Made by a program: the position numbers and the translations under genes. Shown here in pieces: positions 1 through 36,083 of a stretch of DNA of 64,000 bases. Each line of letters begins with the position of its first letter. The first letter of the stretch is position 1. This stretch comes from Escherichia coli (GTDB lineage Bacteria; Pseudomonadota; Gammaproteobacteria; Enterobacterales; Enterobacteriaceae). The stretch is from NCBI RefSeq assembly GCF_044324875.1, contig NZ_CP172185.1. One strand, given 5' to 3'. A model generated the notes under the pieces. It had not been told where the DNA came from and ran no database searches. It saw only the letters and a program-made list of their open reading frames with translations.

Positions 1-707
1 GCCTTTATAGATCAATGACTTTTCAAAATTCGCTCCGAGAAAGGTGATTGATACGTCTTTGTACTTACTGAGATCTTTCCATGCGGTAATATTAAGCTGT
101 TCCTTTTTCGCATCGGTAAAGTACTCATTATTCATGATGAACATATCATTTTCGTTAATTGCTGGTAGCTGGTTCAAAATATTCTTCAGTACTTCCCCTT
201 GTATTTCTGGTTTTCTTTCTGCCGCAATATACATATTTCTGTCATCTAATGACTGTACATTGTGTATTAATGAATTAAGAATTACATTTTTTATATTAGT
301 ATCACCCTCATTAATATTCTGAAAAGAATGAAAATTAGTTACGTCATCAATATAAACATTCCACCCGGACAATAATTCAACAGAAATTTTAAAAAAGGTT
401 TTGTCTGTGATAAGTAATGTCGATGAATTCGAACTATTCAAATAATCGATAACAGTACTAATTACACTTTCATCTCTCGGAACTGAATCTGTAATAATAT
501 ACTTACAATCATTAATTTGTTTTGCTGTCTGTTTAATAAGTTCTTGTGTGTTCTGCACTAAAATATATTTTTCAGTACTATTGTTAATTAAATTACATAT
601 AGCAGTAGTTTTACCTGAACCACAAGGGGCGGAGACATACTTAAATTTATTATAAATAGGTGTAGGATTAATCATTTGTACACGCTCCATATTGATTAAT
701 TTAGAAA
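1..707 (-). CDS. P-loop NTPase, helicase-like or AAA+/STAND-like, C-terminus outside window (partial, at least 235 aa)
   Basis: My own minus-strand translation from ATG at 707: MADLSKLINMERVQMINPTPIYNKFKYVSAPCGSGKTTAICNLIN..., with Walker A GSGKTT near residue 30 and a hydrophobic-DD Walker B-like motif VYIDDV about 85 aa later. Low GC. Not in the ORF track because it has no stop within the window. Confidence 0.6.
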
Positions 708-792
708 GGTCAGCCATTCCAGTGTCTGGCCTTTCGTTGTTTTAGTTATTAGTATTTAGGCATTGAAAAATAATTTTATTTGGCATAGTAAA

Positions 793-2355
793 TCATGATT
801 TATTGATTAAATACTCCACCGATTTTAGGTCATCATTCTGAACTGCCATAAATTTCACATCACCAGTTTTACTATCAATTACCATTGCTTGCTTCTCATT
901 AACACCAATATAATTCACAACTAACATAATAGCATTTCCTAAACGCTTCATTTTTATATTTTTAATAACACGTTTAATCTTCACATTAAAATTAAGTCTT
1001 AAATTAGTATTCTTAGAGTCGAGCAAATCATCAGTGCACGATTCTTTTAAATCGCTAAATTTTTCATAACCAACATTTGATTGTTTCAACCTAGTAATTT
1101 CAGTTCGTATTTCGCTAATACGACGTTGGAGGTTTTTTAGTATACGTCTATCATTAGGGTCAGGTATGTATTCCTTTTCCATGTCTGCGAGTATTTCGCT
1201 ACTATAATTTTCTTTTGTAGCTAGCTCTATTGAAAGATAGTTTATTTTAATTTGTATATCATCATCGTTTGACCTCAACATAGAAAAGTCAAAATTCCTG
1301 ATATGTTCCAATAAAGCATTTTCTATAATCTTGTATTTGAAACCTCTTTCTTTGCATTTATCAATTTTCAATAGACTCCCACCACAACGAAAGTATGTAT
1401 CACCTTTTTTATCGACAGAATTAACTTGGACATATCTGCCACAATTCATACATATGCATAATCCTGCAAATAAATTATTAGCTTTTACATTTACTTTTCC
1501 CAACGGGTTTCTCTGCTTTCGTAAATCATTTACAGTTTCAAATAATGATTGTTCAACAACCACTGGATAGATAATCATACCATCTAAAATTTTACGTCCC
1601 GTAGAATTGAATTTACCAATAAGCCTTTGATCTTTAATTATTTTAACCAAATGATTAATAGTCGGCTCACTTTCATTTATCTGCATTTTTTTCTTTTTTA
1701 GTTCATCACGGATTGCAGCAGGTCCAAATCCATCAGCATACATTTTAAAAATAAGGTTGAACTTCTCAGCCTCACCTTCTTTTATCACATACTTATTATT
1801 TTTAACTTCTATCCATGATGGCACTCGATGTGTTAAAACAGATGTTCCTTCGATAGTATTTTTTATTCTTTCATCCCAGTTTTTAATACTTAAGCGAGCT
1901 TTGCGTTTACTTTCATTATGTGCTCGCTGTAAACCTCCTGAAATAATATTCAGATCACTATATTGGTGATGTATCATTTCTGTTTCTACTTCATGAATAT
2001 CGCATCCAGCATTAATCAAGCTCAAGAATAATCCTGCGGCTCGGTTGGGTGCGGCTCTACTAAAGCGGTCTAGGTTTTCAATGACTAACACTGAATTAGT
2101 GATCTTTTTCTGTAACACATCATCTATAAAGTTTTTCAGTACAGAACCATCTTCGATATTTTTTCCGCTATATGCAGATACACCTTCGGCATACAACCAA
2201 CTAATATCCCCAAACTCATAGCCACGGTTATGTTGAGAATCATCGTATGCAGCAACGTAATCTCGCAGCATTGTTTGCTGTCTCGACATGCCATAGCCAT
2301 CTTTAGCTTGTCCTCTCGAACTGACACGAGCGTAGCAATACACCGCTTTTTTCAT
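793..2355 (-). CDS. Large serine recombinase (integrase/resolvase family), 520 aa
   Basis: N-terminal resolvase-type catalytic region YCYARVSSRGQ with the serine nucleophile context; cysteine-rich zinc-ribbon-like segment CICMNCGRY...FRCGG; C-terminal coiled-coil-like region; low GC; sits at the extreme end of the foreign element. Confidence 0.85.
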   Translation of the reverse strand: MKKAVYCYARVSSRGQAKDGYGMSRQQTMLRDYVAAYDDSQHNRGYEFGDISWLYAEGVSAYSGKNIEDGSVLKNFIDDVLQKKITNSVLVIENLDRFSRAAPNRAAGLFLSLINAGCDIHEVETEMIHHQYSDLNIISGGLQRAHNESKRKARLSIKNWDERIKNTIEGTSVLTHRVPSWIEVKNNKYVIKEGEAEKFNLIFKMYADGFGPAAIRDELKKKKMQINESEPTINHLVKIIKDQRLIGKFNSTGRKILDGMIIYPVVVEQSLFETVNDLRKQRNPLGKVNVKANNLFAGLCICMNCGRYVQVNSVDKKGDTYFRCGGSLLKIDKCKERGFKYKIIENALLEHIRNFDFSMLRSNDDDIQIKINYLSIELATKENYSSEILADMEKEYIPDPNDRRILKNLQRRISEIRTEITRLKQSNVGYEKFSDLKESCTDDLLDSKNTNLRLNFNVKIKRVIKNIKMKRLGNAIMLVVNYIGVNEKQAMVIDSKTGDVKFMAVQNDDLKSVEYLINKS

Positions 2356-2396
2356 TTTATTTTCCCTAAAATCATAACAGTAAAAAGCAGTATATC

Positions 2397-2801
2397 ATGG
2401 TGGTTATTGGCATCATTGCCATTTTAAGCGCCATTGGTATTCCCGCTTATCAAAACTACCTGCGCAAAGCCGCACTCACCGACATGCTACAAACCTTTGT
2501 GCCTTACCGTACCGCCGTAGAGTTGTGCGCGCTGGAACATGGTGGATTAGATACCTGCGACGGTGGCAGTAATGGCATCCCCTCGCCTACCACTACCCGC
2601 TATGTTTCAGCCATGAGTGTGGCAAAGGGCGTGGTGTCGCTGACCGGGCAAGAAAGTCTCAATGGGCTAAGCGTCGTCATGACGCCGGGTTGGGATAACG
2701 CAAACGGCGTCACCGGTTGGACGCGCAACTGCAATATTCAAAGTGACAGCGCATTGCAGCAAGCCTGCGAAGATGTCTTCCGCTTTGATGACGCCAACTA
2801 A
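2397..2801 (+). pseudogene. ppdD: Type IV prepilin PpdD, N-terminally truncated by the upstream insertion
   Basis: ORF begins MVVIGIIAILSAIGIPAYQNYLRKAA..., i.e. inside the conserved pilin N-terminal helix; the leader peptide and the G/F cleavage site with FTLIE are missing; sequence immediately upstream is low-GC foreign DNA. Confidence 0.75.
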
Positions 2802-19080: not shown

Positions 19081-20148
19081 TTACGCCCGGGCAGCCCGGC
19101 TCACTTCATTTGCCACTCGCTCGGTGGCATCCGGAATGGATGCAGCGCGGGCGCGTTCTGCCATGGTTAATAAGGTTTCTCGCGACCACCCGGCCAGGGT
19201 GTTGGCGACAGCATCCACGCTAAGCTGTGGCTGCTCGATAATTTTGGCTGCGCCCGCTTTTTCCAGCGGTAGAGCATTCCAGTATTGCTGGCGGTCTTTA
19301 TGTTGAAACGGCACAAACAACGCCGGTAGTCCTGCCGCAGCGATTTCACTCACCGTTAACGCACCGGAGCGGCAAACGACGACATCCGCCCACGCATACG
19401 CCGCCGCCATATCATCAATAAATTCCGTCACTTTATGCTGCGGTTGCCCCGCTTCGGCATATGCCTGTTCAACGGATTGTTGCGAACCTTTACCGCTCTG
19501 ATGCCAGATAGTGACTGAATCACCCAGTTTCGCAGCAACCTGCGGCATTGTCTGGTTAAGAATGCGTGCGCCCTGGGAACCACCCACTACCAACACACGA
19601 ACCGGACCTTCACGTCCAGCCAAACGTTGCTGCGGCAACGGCAGCGCCAGCACATCGGTACGCACCGGGTTACCCACCACTTCCGCATTAGGGAAAGCGC
19701 CTGGAAACGCCTGCATCACTTTGGTAGCAATCTTCGCCAGCCATTTATTGGTTAAGCCCGCAATACCGTTTTGTTCATGAAGCACAACCGGAATGCCTAA
19801 CGACCACGCGGCCAGACCACCTGGACCTGATACGTAGCCGCCCATACCGAGCACCACGTCAGGTTTGTACGCTTTCATAATCGCCCGCGCCTGACGCCAG
19901 GCGTTGAAGATACGCAGCGGGGCAGCTATCAGTGCTTTTATACCTTTTCCACGCAGACCAGAGATACGAATGAAATCAATTTCGATGCCATGTTTTGGCA
20001 CTAAGTCCGCTTCCATACGGTCGGCAGTCCCCAGCCAGCGAACTTGCCAACCCTGAGCCATTAGATGGTGCGCAACCGCCAGCCCCGGGAATACATGTCC
20101 ACCGGTTCCGCCTGCCATCACCATTAATCGCTTTCCTTGACCACTCAT
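19081..20148 (-). CDS. murG: Lipid II synthase (UDP-GlcNAc transferase) MurG
   Basis: 355 aa with [12 protein letters not shown]-terminal motif. Confidence 0.97.
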
Positions 20149-21389
20149 CGTGAACCTCGTACAAACGCCTGCGCTTTCTCCAGACGCGTTTCATAATCAA
20201 TACGCAACAGCATCATGATGGCTGTCGACATAATCAGTAAGCTCGAACCACCGTAACTGATCAGCGGCAATGTCAGACCTTTGGTCGGTAACATCCCCGC
20301 CGCCGCGCCTACGTTAACCAGCGCCTGGAAGCTAAACCAGATGCCAATGGAACAGGCGAGAAAACCGGAAAAACGATGGTCAATTTCTAATGCTTTACGG
20401 CCAATCGACATCGCACGAAAAGCGACGAAGAATACCATTAAAAGTGCTAGTACCACACCGACATAACCTAATTCTTCGCCGATAATGGCGAAAATAAAGT
20501 CAGTGTGCGCTTCCGGCAGATACTCCAGTTTTTGTACCGAGTTACCTAAACCTTGCCCCCAAAGTTCGCCGCGACCAAACGCCATCAGCGATTGCGTTAA
20601 CTGATAGCCGCTGCCAAAGGGATCTTCCCACGGGTTCCAGAATGCGGTAACACGGCGGATACGGTACGGTTCGGCGAGGATCAGCAACACAACCGCTGAA
20701 ATGCCCATACCGATAATGGCAATGAACTGCCACAATTTCGCTCCCGCCAGGAATAACATCGCCAGCGTAGTCACAAACAACACCACCACCGTACCAAGGT
20801 CTGGCTGTGCCAGCAGTAATACTGCTAACACCAGAATCACGCCCATCGGTTTCAGGAAGCCGCGCAGGTTATTACGTACTTCGTCGCCTTTACGCACCAG
20901 ATAGTTGGCGATATAGCAAAACAACGACAGTTTTGTCAGCTCCGCAGGCTGGATACGCAGCAAGCCGAGATCGATCCAACGCGATGCCCCTTTAACAGAG
21001 CTACCCACTACCAGAACGATCATCAACAGGATGATTGATCCGAGTAGCATCGTAGCGCTGTAACGTTGCCAGAACTCCATCGGCAGACGCAGCGTAATGA
21101 TCGCCAGAATGAATGCCAGGATCAGATAGACGCCATCACGCTTCGCGAAGAAGAACGGATCGTTGGTTAAGCGTTGCCCTATGGGCATTGACGCCGAGGT
21201 CACCATGATAAAGCCAATCGCCGCGAGGCCGAAGGTCAGCCACAGTAAGGTGCGATCGTACATGATCAGGCTGTCGGTATCTTTTTCCCGCGAGCCCATC
21301 ACCCAGCCCTTTAGCGCCGTGGAGATCCAGACCAGAATACTGAATCCTGGCAGGCGCGGCATTTTCAGGCGAGGGAGAGATAAACGCAT
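20145..21389 (-). CDS. ftsW: Peptidoglycan glycosyltransferase / lipid II flippase FtsW (SEDS family)
   Basis: About 414 aa polytopic membrane protein; the track ORF has one extra N-terminal Met. Confidence 0.95.
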
Positions 21390-32437: not shown

Positions 32438-34162
32438 TCAGGTTCTCTCCGTTTTGCTTAACCACATTTCATCCATTCCGCCCCCGCGAATCTGCATCGG
32501 GTAGACGTGCTCACTGCCATCGACGGTAACATCAACAAACACCAGGCGATTATTGCGCACCTGTTCCAGCGCCTCGCTAAGTTTGCTTTCCAGTTCTTGC
32601 GGATGAGAAATCTGGATCCCGACGTGACCATAGGCTTCCGCCAGACGAACGAAATCGGGTAGCGATTGCATATAAGATTGTGAATGACGGCCGGAATAGA
32701 TCATGTCCTGCCACTGTTTCACCATCCCCAGATAGCGGTTATTGAGATTCACCACCAGTACGGGCAACTCGTATTGCAACGCGGTAGACAGTTCCTGGAT
32801 GTTCATCTGAATACTGCCGTCGCCAGTGACGCAAACCACGGTTTCTTCTGGCAACGCCATTTTGACGCCCAGTGCCGCAGGCAAACCAAACCCCATCGTG
32901 CCGAGGCCGCCAGAGTTGATCCAGCGACGCGGTTTGTCGAATGGATAATAAAGCGCAGCAAACATCTGGTGCTGCCCGACATCGGACGTCACGTAAGCGT
33001 CTCCCTTCGTCAACCGCCAAAGAGTCTCGATCACCGCCTGCGGTTTAATCTTTTCACTGTGAGTGTCATATTTCAGGCACTGACGAGCCCGCCACTGTTC
33101 AATCTGCTGCCACCAGTCGCGGATCTCATCCAGCGGTTGATGGACGGATTCTTGCGACAGGAGTTCAAGCATTTGTTCGAGGACCTGGCGAGCATCCCCC
33201 ACAATCGGGATATCAGCAGTCACGGTTTTAGAAATGGAAGTAGGATCAATATCGATATGCAGAACCGTGGCATTTGGGCAGTACTTCGCCAGATTGTTCG
33301 TCGTTCGGTCATCAAAACGTACCCCGACGGCAAAAATCACATCCGCGTTATGCATCGTCATATTAGCTTCGTAGGTGCCGTGCATTCCCAGCATGCCCAG
33401 TGCCTGACGATGCGTTGCCGGAAACGCCCCCAGCCCCATTAATGAGGAAACAACGGGCAGATTCAACGCCTCCACCGTTTCTTTTAGCTGCTGATGACAG
33501 CCCGCCGTGATTGCCCCACCGCCTACATAGACAACCGGTTTTTTTGCCGCCACCAGCGTTTGCAGAGCACGCTTAATTTGCCCTTTATGTCCGGTAGTAG
33601 TGGGATTGTAAGATCGCATACTGACCGACTCCGGCCAGACATAGGGTAATTTGTTCGCCGGATTAAGAATATCTTTGGGTAAATCAACGACCACGGGCCC
33701 AGGACGACCACTTGCCGCCAGCCAGAAAGCCTTTTTCAGCACCTGCGGAATGTCTTCCGTTTGCTTAACCAGAAAACTGTGTTTAACCACCGGGCGAGAA
33801 ATCCCCACCATGTCGCACTCCTGAAAGGCATCGTAGCCTATCAACGAGGTCGCTACCTGCCCGGAAAGGACAACTAATGGAATGGAATCCATATAAGCGG
33901 TGGCAATGCCAGTAATCGCATTGGTCGCCCCTGGACCCGACGTTACCAGCACGACGCCGACTTCCCCGGTCGCGCGCGCCAGACCATCGGCCATATGCAC
34001 CGCCGCCTGCTCATGACGAACTAAAACATGATCGATACCACCCACGGTATGCAATGCATCGTAAATATCAAGGACCGCGCCTCCGGGATAACCGAATACT
34101 TGTTTAACGCCCTGATCGATAAGCGATCGGACGACCATCTCGGCTCCAGACAACATCTCCAT
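32438..34162 (-). CDS. ilvI: Acetolactate synthase III large subunit
   Basis: 574 aa TPP enzyme starting [14 protein letters not shown]. Confidence 0.95.
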
Positions 34163-34480
34163 GGCCTGCCTCACTGTTTGACGGAAAAAAATGTGTAAAA
34201 CACATTAACCGTCCGATCTTGCTTAAGCAATTGGCAGCCAGAGACATAAACACGGGGTAATAAGAATAAACAGGAGGAAAGGTGAAAAGAAACGATAAAA
34301 TCCTCCATTACAGAGGATTAAATTGATAATAAATCGGCTGAATCCCACAACTTACAGCAATTTCTCTATTTTTTTAATTAATCCTAAAATAGAGAGCACA
34401 CACATTCAGAATAAAATTCTACATTCAATAAAAAATGCAGAATAAACCAGACATTGATGTCTGACCTATTCTGCATTCAG

Positions 34481-35425
34481 TTAGCGTTTGCAAATTGAGA
34501 CTAATTGCTCTTCCATCCACTGATGGCCTTTATCGCGCCCGGCAGCTTCATGCCAGGAGAGATAACAGGTTCTGCTGTTTTGTTTTAACGGCAGCGGTAA
34601 TATCTGTAATTCTAAGGATTCAGCGAACTCTTCCGCCAGCCAACGCGGCGCAATAGCGACCAGATGCGTTTGCGACACCACGCTAAGTACGCTCATCATT
34701 GCCATGCCCTGATACGCGATACTGGCTTGCTTATCTACCGTGTCATACCACGGTTGACTAAATGACGCGAAACGATCGAGCGAAACCGCCGCATGTTGTT
34801 CGTTATAAACATCATGTTTCAGTAACGGGCCTTTAATTGTTGGATGATTTTTGCTGGCTACCAGCACCATTTCATCTTTAAATAATGGCACACTGGTAAA
34901 TTCAGGACGATGGAAGTCTTCATAACTAATCACAAACTCCGTTTCCTGATAACGCAGCTGATGTTCAGTGTTCTGATTTAATGAAGACTTGAACATAACA
35001 TGTATATTTGGCGCAATCTGCTCAATGTGATTATAAATCTGCGAGGTCAGAATGCTGTCTAACGGGCTGCAGACACAAAGATGAAATACACGTTCACTAC
35101 TGGCAGGCTCAAAGCCTGAACCTGGTAATTCATTTTGTACTAATTGCAATGCCTGACGAACTGAACCAAAAAGTTGAAATGCGCGAGCAGTCGGTTGAAT
35201 ACCACGGCCATAACGAACAAAAAGCTCGTCATTAAACATCACCTTCAGGCGTGCAACAGCGTTACTGACCGCAGGTTGCGACATTCCCAGAACATGAGCG
35301 GCACGGGTGATGTTTTGCTCCTGCATCACGGCATCGAAAACGGTTAATAAGTTGAGATCGACCATGCGTAGCTGTGGCTTGCTTAACTCCGCCGTCTCTG
35401 GATGATCTGTTTGTACCTCTGGCAT
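34481..35425 (-). CDS. leuO: LysR-family transcriptional regulator LeuO
   Basis: 314 aa starting [16 protein letters not shown]; flanked by very AT-rich intergenic DNA. Confidence 0.95.
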
Positions 35426-36083
35426 ACTTAACTCCACTGTCACACTTAACTCCCTTTCCCTTATTGGAATGCAGAGAAATAATCCTCGAGAATATGATTT
35501 ATCATGCATATAAAATAAGAAAAAGGAAAATGAGTAAAATTAGGAAAACATAAAGATACGGGTTCTTATAAAAACAGAATCCATTGCCGTGGAAAGCGTC
35601 ATTTACCACAGCATAATAATCCATAATGTTTTTGTTGCGAAAACAATCTAATCATAACTACCACGAATACTCAATCATCCACAAAATGGATTAAATGTGC
35701 TTTTTTAATAATTAATTTATATGTTTAATGCATTAATTCTTAACATTAATTGATCAATAATATTCACCAAATGAATATCAAAAAATTCGCAAAACATATA
35801 ATTCAATACAAATCATCAGGATAGGTTTTGTAACGCGTGCATTTTATCCCCCTTTCCCTCGTCGATTAGATGCAAAAATTTATTCTGAAATATGTCAACC
35901 GATGAAAAGCAGCGGTGGTTAAGCAGAAATTAATATCGCTTGTTTTAACCACCGCAGCACAATTAGCTAATTTGACTGATGCAGAACTCACGCTGGCTGG
36001 ACGTTTTTGTTGCATCAGGGTTGACATCCGTTTTGGTATCCAGTAACTCTAAAAGCATATCGCATTCATCTGGAGCTGATTTG

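Follow-up and report, generated by a model that had tools for sequence, protein, structure and literature searches.

The stretch of DNA analysed here (the window) comprises 64,000 nucleotides of Escherichia coli contig NZ_CP172185.1 (assembly GCF_044324875.1), and it opens inside a minus-strand gene which, as judged from its motifs and a structural model, encodes a helicase-family ATPase of superfamily 2 (SF2). This gene is the signature gene, and the most conserved backbone gene, of a family of small integrative elements that carry exchangeable immune genes. Based on the architecture of its homologs, we propose, with slightly better than even confidence, that the protein serves as the replication helicase or initiator of its island, acting after excision on a non-coding module that adjoins its gene.

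Reading Frame, Motifs and Fold of the Helicase

Translation of the minus strand from the ATG at position 717 to the left edge of the window gives an open frame of 239 codons with 0 stops. The initial annotation of the window had placed the beginning of such a frame at 707: the frame is real, but that coordinate is one base off, as translation exactly from 707 enters a frame full of stops, and it is to the open frame that positions 708 and 717 belong. As had correctly been stated, the list of open reading frames omits it since no stop lies inside the window, the frame running off the left end. The window matches E. coli MSI001 (NZ_CP076645.1) at 100% identity, and there the full-length gene could be read at 19242-20717 of the region designated L001 (window coordinate = L001 coordinate - 20000). 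It has 491 codons from the first ATG and extends 759 nt past the left window edge, so that the window carries residues 1-239. In-frame ATGs occur at 717 (M1), 690 and 675, and the product predicted by PGAP starts at the third of these, has 477 amino acids and is named 'type III restriction endonuclease subunit R'. The features of the gene are the following:

1..717, minus strand: N-terminal part (239 of 491 amino acids) of the predicted SF2 helicase-like ATPase, with RecA-like domain 1 and an inserted beta-rich domain (translation, model and fold matches).
604..633, minus strand: Walker A motif (helicase motif I) at residues 29-38, SAPCGSGKTT (all 53 relatives have G33 and K36).
538..564, minus strand: motif Ia region, ILVQNTQEL, residues 52-60 (the family profile aligns here to motif I-Ia of XPB/Rad25).
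340..357, minus strand: Walker B motif (helicase motif II) at residues 121-126, VYIDDV, in which DD replaces the DE of DExx (all 53 relatives have D124).
718..792: spacer of 75 nt from the stop of the neighbouring recombinase gene to the helicase ATG (sequence).

An exhaustive HMMER search against 1.8 billion proteins recovered 431 relatives at the threshold of E<=1e-3, from which 53 with 19-50% identity to the query were aligned for the analysis of motifs. Residues G33, K36, D124, G326, Q374, R378 and R382 are invariant in this alignment and represent helicase motifs I, II, V and VI, of which V (RGxN) and VI (QxxxRxxxR) fall in the part of the gene beyond the window. The initial annotation had described a P-loop NTPase with a Walker A motif about 30 residues into the frame and VYIDDV about 85 residues further on, and the alignment agrees with it in each respect: the first motif occupies residues 29-38, K36 and D124 are 88 residues apart, and both belong, together with G33, to the invariant set. 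It had also raised the objection that such motifs might be chance matches in AT-rich DNA. They are not, as these three residues are invariant across relatives so divergent, and the gene also continues to a 491-amino-acid product in MSI001. At position 125, 35 of the aligned sequences have D and 18 have E; the enterobacterial branch therefore has a DD variant of DExx, and the D-E form of motif II was found in five of the ten primase-fused homologs scanned.

The AlphaFold2 model computed from this alignment (predicted local distance difference test score, pLDDT, 91.6; predicted template modelling score, pTM, 0.81) contains two RecA-like domains, the second with the invariant Q374, R378 and R382 of motif VI, and, inserted between motifs II and III, a beta-rich segment that spans residues ~126-222. 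At the C-terminus, a basic tail bearing an RGRP AT-hook leads into three helices. The closest overall fold is that of XPD/DinG, at 8-15% identity, and the structural neighbours include type IV-A3 DinG and DdmD. In the PDB, a sequence search with the single protein gave no match, while the family profile gave matches at motif I-Ia only, aligning there to XPB/Rad25, UvrB, NS3 and DEAD-box proteins. Among the PHROGs, the whole protein corresponds to phrog_2467 (6e-38), a family of unknown function.

The initial annotation had left two classes side by side, an SF2 helicase and an AAA+/STAND ATPase. The first is upheld by motifs V and VI and by the two RecA-like domains; the second has in its favor a weak Pfam match to nSTAND_NTPase5 (E=0.019) alone. 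As all significant sequence and structure matches are to SF2 (a few SF1) helicases, and a second RecA-like domain bears the motif VI arginines, we give an AAA+/STAND-type NTPase practically no credence. Motif, model and profile evidence together settle the choice in favor of SF2, and the protein is, on these predictions, an SF2 helicase-family ATPase. It is not a member of the XPD family in the strict sense. Proteins of the XPD/Rad3/DinG group carry, between motifs Ia and II, a 4Fe-4S domain built on four cysteines, although some DinG proteins lack it. No such four-cysteine set is present here: C32, C41 and C71 are the sole cysteines ahead of motif II, with just one (C71) between motifs Ia and II. 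It is this lack of iron-sulfur cluster cysteines, together with the low identity to XPD/DinG, that sets the protein apart.

The name given in RefSeq by PGAP would make the protein the Res subunit of a type III restriction system. Apart from that name, the reading draws on a Pfam match to ResIII/DEAD (E=1.4e-4 and 2.8e-3), but this match covers just 49 residues around Walker A (residues 26-74). With 491 amino acids the protein is half the usual size and has no C-terminal PD-(D/E)xK endonuclease domain, its C-terminus being a basic tail with three helices, and no methyltransferase (Mod) gene was found in the seven annotated islands examined. For these reasons we consider a type III Res subunit very improbable and already contradicted; the database name is wrong, and has been inherited by many genomes.

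The Helicase Gene as Backbone of an Element Family

Although the initial annotation had taken the gene for the first cargo gene of its element, comparison of loci showed the opposite: it stays in place when the integrase type, the insertion site and the cargo are exchanged around it, which makes it a backbone gene. Members of the family are integrative elements of 9-11 kb that occur in Enterobacterales, their hosts including E. coli, Klebsiella, Enterobacter, Citrobacter, Serratia, Yersinia, Pectobacterium and Providencia. The helicase gene and the adjoining non-coding module occur in at least 52 of 5426 E. coli genomes, always on the chromosome; a degenerate-pattern genome scan with a narrow alignment had found 8 loci only. 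Across loci the order is constant, namely helicase, non-coding module, transmembrane protein, ~118-amino-acid protein, variable genes and resolvase, while the genes downstream of the helicase themselves vary (346 versus 258 amino acids, or absent). Even a 43%-identical relative still has a non-coding stretch followed by a resolvase. The integrases, encoded at the position that the large serine recombinase gene has in this island, belong to several large serine types and to two tyrosine types unrelated to each other, and insertion has taken place at ppdD, rcnR/thiM, ffs/ybaA and yggS/yggR.

The cargo observed, for the most part anti-phage systems, comprises TIR+NACHT, a retron reverse transcriptase with STM3845, an AAA ATPase with a partner, a 1014-amino-acid STAND ATPase, AAA_23 with a Cap4 nuclease (Lamassu-like), and a PAAR protein. 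The helicase gene is the one gene common to these small islands, which shuttle very different immune systems, from TIR-NACHT, retron, STAND/Avs-like and Lamassu-like systems to unknown cassettes, and the variable slot flags uncharacterised candidate defence genes.

Some copies show particular features. Compared with the copy at the rcnR/thiM site (L002 11245-12717), the helicase gene of this island is a mosaic: residues 21-125 are 82% identical, and residues 226-491 together with the next 1 kb are 96-99% identical, a difference that suggests a recombination breakpoint within the gene. The Providencia rettgeri homolog (L017 10001-12120) matches as two overlapping tblastn pieces and may therefore be frameshifted; the non-coding region of this relative contains a 199-bp tandem duplication. 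Recurrent contigs of ~6.5 kb were considered as possible episomes and dismissed, being assembly fragments bounded by insertion sequence (IS) elements.

A Conserved Non-Coding Module beside the Helicase Gene

Directly past the helicase stop, just left of the window, lies a module of ~490 nt (L001 18755-19241). It is 82-90% identical across E. coli, Tenebrionibacter, Enterobacter, Raoultella, Phytobacter and Pantoea, and this holds even where the helicase protein is only 55-57% identical. The inverted repeats TGTCCAGAACACCATCAT / ATGATGGTGTTTCGGACA bound the module, a second inverted TGTCCG pair surrounds an AT-rich spacer at its start, and a conserved hairpin, CTCACGYAGTGAG, is found within it. 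Moreover, the 16-mer CTCACGYAGTGAGTAC, a 5-bp hairpin followed by TAC, is present exactly once per locus in 16 of the 22 loci examined, the 43%-identical relative included, ~160-190 nt beyond the stop and on the strand of the helicase gene. The module thus has inverted and direct repeats, and it is a candidate origin of replication or transfer. An origin adjoining its initiator gene is the simplest reading of this arrangement, with an origin of transfer (oriT) or a packaging site as the main alternative.

Other explanations of the module were considered. An invertible switch, in which the 445-bp segment between the inverted repeats would be flipped by the small serine recombinase of the island, was rejected: the segment has the same orientation in 8/8 loci from six genera, it is colinear and in one piece in 41/41 E. 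coli genomes with full coverage, and the resolvase has repeats of its own beside its gene. Regarding a structured RNA, there was no Rfam match at E<=1 in the module, and RNAalifold lent no support, double changes being seen in only 7 pairs and the covariation term being +4.46, though sequence variation is too low for this to count against an RNA. Mimicry of the oriT, cos or ori of a helper was likewise discarded, as blastn found no similarity of the module to 72,556 plasmids or 50,697 phages.

A second non-coding block (L001 18259-18750), upstream of the gene for the 346-amino-acid membrane protein, contains about six TTGATCGAT/ATCGATCAA repeats, which are GATC-rich; it travels with that gene and is missing where the gene is missing.

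A Probable Role in Replication and Its Alternatives

About 40 of the 150 best representatives in the HMMER search are longer proteins of 750-990 amino acids. We examined ten such homologs (783-989 amino acids), which match the query at E values of 1e-10 to 1e-21, and in eight of them a domain classified by PHROGs as 'DNA primase', 'replicative helicase-primase' or 'replication origin binding' is fused N- or C-terminally to the helicase module. In one of these proteins (P0180), the N-terminal 287 residues have only Prim-Pol relatives (PF09250, some with PriCT_2), with E values down to 7e-53. In phages, plasmids and satellites, replication proteins are as a rule built in this way, with primase and helicase fused. 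Because of these fusions, replication helicase is the likeliest role of the protein; the suggestion of a phage replication module, made in the initial annotation, is in this indirect way supported as well. Outside the islands, homologs were seen in jumbo phage Atu_ph07, where the neighbours are all hypothetical, and on the Methylobacterium plasmid pMNOD04, whose 20%-identical homolog occurs with no annotated Rep in a gene table that is incomplete, another hypothetical gene adjoining parA.

On this basis, the following sequence of events can be envisaged. The integrase would excise the island as a circle, and the helicase would bind the module adjoining its own gene, with its TGTCCG inverted repeats and CTCACGYAGTGAG hairpin. 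It would then open the DNA using ATP and bring in host priming and polymerase functions, so that the circle is replicated, after which the resolvase would separate multimers.

Several observations weigh against such a role. All 54 E. coli matches are chromosomal, with 0 on plasmids, and no episomal sign was detected, as 0/11 short contigs had a terminal overlap. The protein has no primase domain, and the island no primase gene. The primase domains of the long homologs were recognised by PHROGs and by homolog searches but not by Pfam, NCBIfam or the PDB; the 'DNA primase' labels are thus PHROG annotations, and Pfam has no match for the domain in the long homolog P0169. In addition, the module is better conserved than the helicase protein, and a co-evolving initiator/iteron pair usually shows no such excess conservation of the iterons. 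The ATPase activity of the subfamily may be altered, since its motif II is DD and not DE, and, to our knowledge, XPD/DinG-like helicases are not typical replication initiators. The lack of an island primase and of any direct sign of episomal copies, and the higher conservation of the module, leave room for a role in transfer or immunity.

In the first of these alternatives, which has a lesser though appreciable probability, the helicase would serve horizontal transfer: the module would be an oriT or packaging site through which the island hitches on a conjugative element or helper phage, in an 'iOriT'-like or satellite-like manner. The conservation of the module relative to the protein would be consistent with this, as would its hairpin followed by GTAC, a feature often seen at nick regions. 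Furthermore, the mobilisation of integrase-only E. coli defence islands is unexplained (PMC10121019), and many genomic islands have an oriT only (bioRxiv 10.64898/2026.01.13.699239). Nevertheless, the module lacks blastn similarity to the plasmids and phages searched, genes for a relaxase, for packaging or for a capsid were not detected in the element, and the primase fusions of the homologs indicate replication instead.

DinG acts in type IV CRISPR systems, and helicases are part of Hachiman, DdmDE and Zorya. Accordingly, the helicase might also contribute immunity or exclusion as part of the backbone, perhaps together with the membrane and secreted proteins encoded downstream, a possibility that we regard as unlikely. 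Type IV-A3 DinG and DdmD are indeed among the structural neighbours of the model, and the element family is dedicated to defence cargo. However, no PADLOC model matched the protein (the best was Cas3d, E=0.0066, with 0 significant stretches), and it contains neither a nuclease nor an effector domain. The initial annotation had recommended a search for nuclease, TOPRIM or methyltransferase partners, and none was found in the immediate neighbourhood of the helicase gene. Moreover, the downstream genes are not constant among loci, and the known defence genes sit in a separate variable slot on the opposite strand.

Replication thus remains the role that we favor for the helicase. Extending it to the whole family, the islands might form a class of defence carriers, not named before, that replicate themselves and behave like satellites or hitchers, whose engine would be an SF2 (XPD/DinG-like) helicase with a ~490-nt cis module, and whose integrases and immune cargo would be exchanged freely; this broader proposal is a tentative one, which we hold with less than even confidence.

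The Island in ppdD and Its Cargo

The first 2.4 kb of the window have 31% G+C as compared to ~52% for the rest, and the helicase gene is part of an AT-rich insert of 9,597 bp that interrupts ppdD. The 12-bp repeat ATGGTGGTYATT is present at both ends of the island (L001 12800 and 22397, the latter being window position 2397), and the flanks joined at this repeat exist as contiguous sequence in 5414 of 5426 complete E. coli genomes, 100%-identical examples included. The exact ppdD arrangement is carried by six genomes only. The features at this end of the island are:

793..2355, minus strand: large serine recombinase of 520 amino acids, the integrase of this copy, with an N-terminal YARVSS catalytic-serine motif (translation; phrog_95 integrase, 1e-42).
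2356..2396: element side of attR, marking the right-hand limit of the island (boundary placed by rebuilding the empty site).
2397..2408: 12-bp repeat ATGGTGGTTATT, crossover region inside ppdD; its partner ATGGTGGTCATT is at the left end, L001 12800.
2397..2801, plus strand: 3' part of ppdD, 134 native codons, severed by the island from the first 12 codons.

As the first 12 codons with the prepilin leader are lost, the ppdD pilin should be non-functional. Elements with serine recombinases insert in or beside type IV pilus genes, being found within ppdD here and directly upstream of yggR (pilT-like) elsewhere (L020, L022). From right to left, the island encodes the 520-amino-acid recombinase, the helicase, ~1 kb of non-coding sequence, a 346-amino-acid membrane protein, a 119-amino-acid secreted protein and a 185-amino-acid recombinase of the Hin/resolvase serine type, and on its opposite strand two genes for proteins of 425 and 365 amino acids. 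Just upstream of the small serine recombinase gene are two 24-nt direct repeats (AGTATCATTTAAATT..., L001 16289-16340), likely res or operator sites of this recombinase itself.

The 425- and 365-amino-acid proteins are the cargo of this copy, a two-gene operon (L001 13191-15571, plus strand) ~5 kb beyond the helicase gene and outside the window. Neither protein had a Pfam, PADLOC, PHROG or NCBIfam match, and the same pair, 65% and 54% identical, is carried by a different integrase-bearing island of Pseudomonas. In the 365-amino-acid protein, E28, D46, D48, D66 and K68 are invariant, and its model (pLDDT 87.5) has an alpha-beta-beta-beta-alpha-beta core with weak matches to PD-(D/E)xK nucleases (MspJI, Can2, Cdn1, AF1548). 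The cassette is therefore a candidate for an uncharacterised defence system with a predicted nuclease.

The window from 2.4 kb on is ordinary E. coli core chromosome, with hofB/hofC, guaC, coaE, secA, the dcw cluster, leu, ara, polB, rapA and lptD. A G+C dip to 41% at 34000-36000 corresponds to leuO and the leuO-leuL intergenic region, ordinary core chromosome too.

Comparison with Known Systems

Among helicases, the protein resembles XPD/Rad3/DinG in its predicted fold, but it differs from them in its low identity (8-15%), in the lack of the four-cysteine iron-sulfur cluster, in being much shorter, in its other C-terminal tail with an AT-hook, and in its location in the backbone of a mobile element. 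With type III Res subunits it shares the SF2 ATPase core, whereas it has no nuclease domain and no Mod partner, is half their size and belongs to another genomic setting.

As for replication proteins, the likeness to primase-helicase Reps (P4 alpha, SaPI Pri/Rep, Prim-Pol+D5/SF3) is that homologs of this module are fused to Prim-Pol or primase domains, and the likeness to the rep/ori regions of satellites is that the helicase gene comes right after the integrase gene and beside a repeat-bearing non-coding region. Unlike those Reps, whose helicases belong to SF3 or SF4, the helicase described here is SF2-like and has neither a primase domain nor a separate primase gene in its island. In addition, no genes typical of phage-inducible chromosomal islands (PICI) or P4-like satellites were found (AlpA-type regulator, SF3 pri-rep, capsid or packaging hijack), as PHROG and NCBIfam scans of all island proteins returned integrase/invertase functions only. 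A precedent for an SF2 replication helicase is provided by CyRepA, an experimentally supported Rep of cyanobacterial plasmids that combines a primase-like (Toprim-like) domain and a DEXDc SF2 helicase domain in one protein (PMC10079941). The protein studied here lacks the DUF3854/Toprim-like domain, and the NCBIfam model CyRepA1 (NF042913) gave 21 bits over residues 26-75, the P-loop region, against a cut-off of 200, so it is not a member of CyRepA.

Finally, Hochhauser et al. (2023) described small chromosomal defence islands of E. coli that have integrase or recombinase genes and no recognised mobility genes, and whose mobilisation is unclear; their text makes no mention of a helicase, resolvase or serine recombinase (PMC10121019). 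The islands reported here fit these 'integrase-only' defence islands, the difference being that a conserved helicase and a non-coding module are now named as their common backbone. A replication helicase with its cis module would offer a concrete, testable handle on the spread of such islands and, if the proposal is true, a class of self-replicating carriers would explain how they amplify and move.
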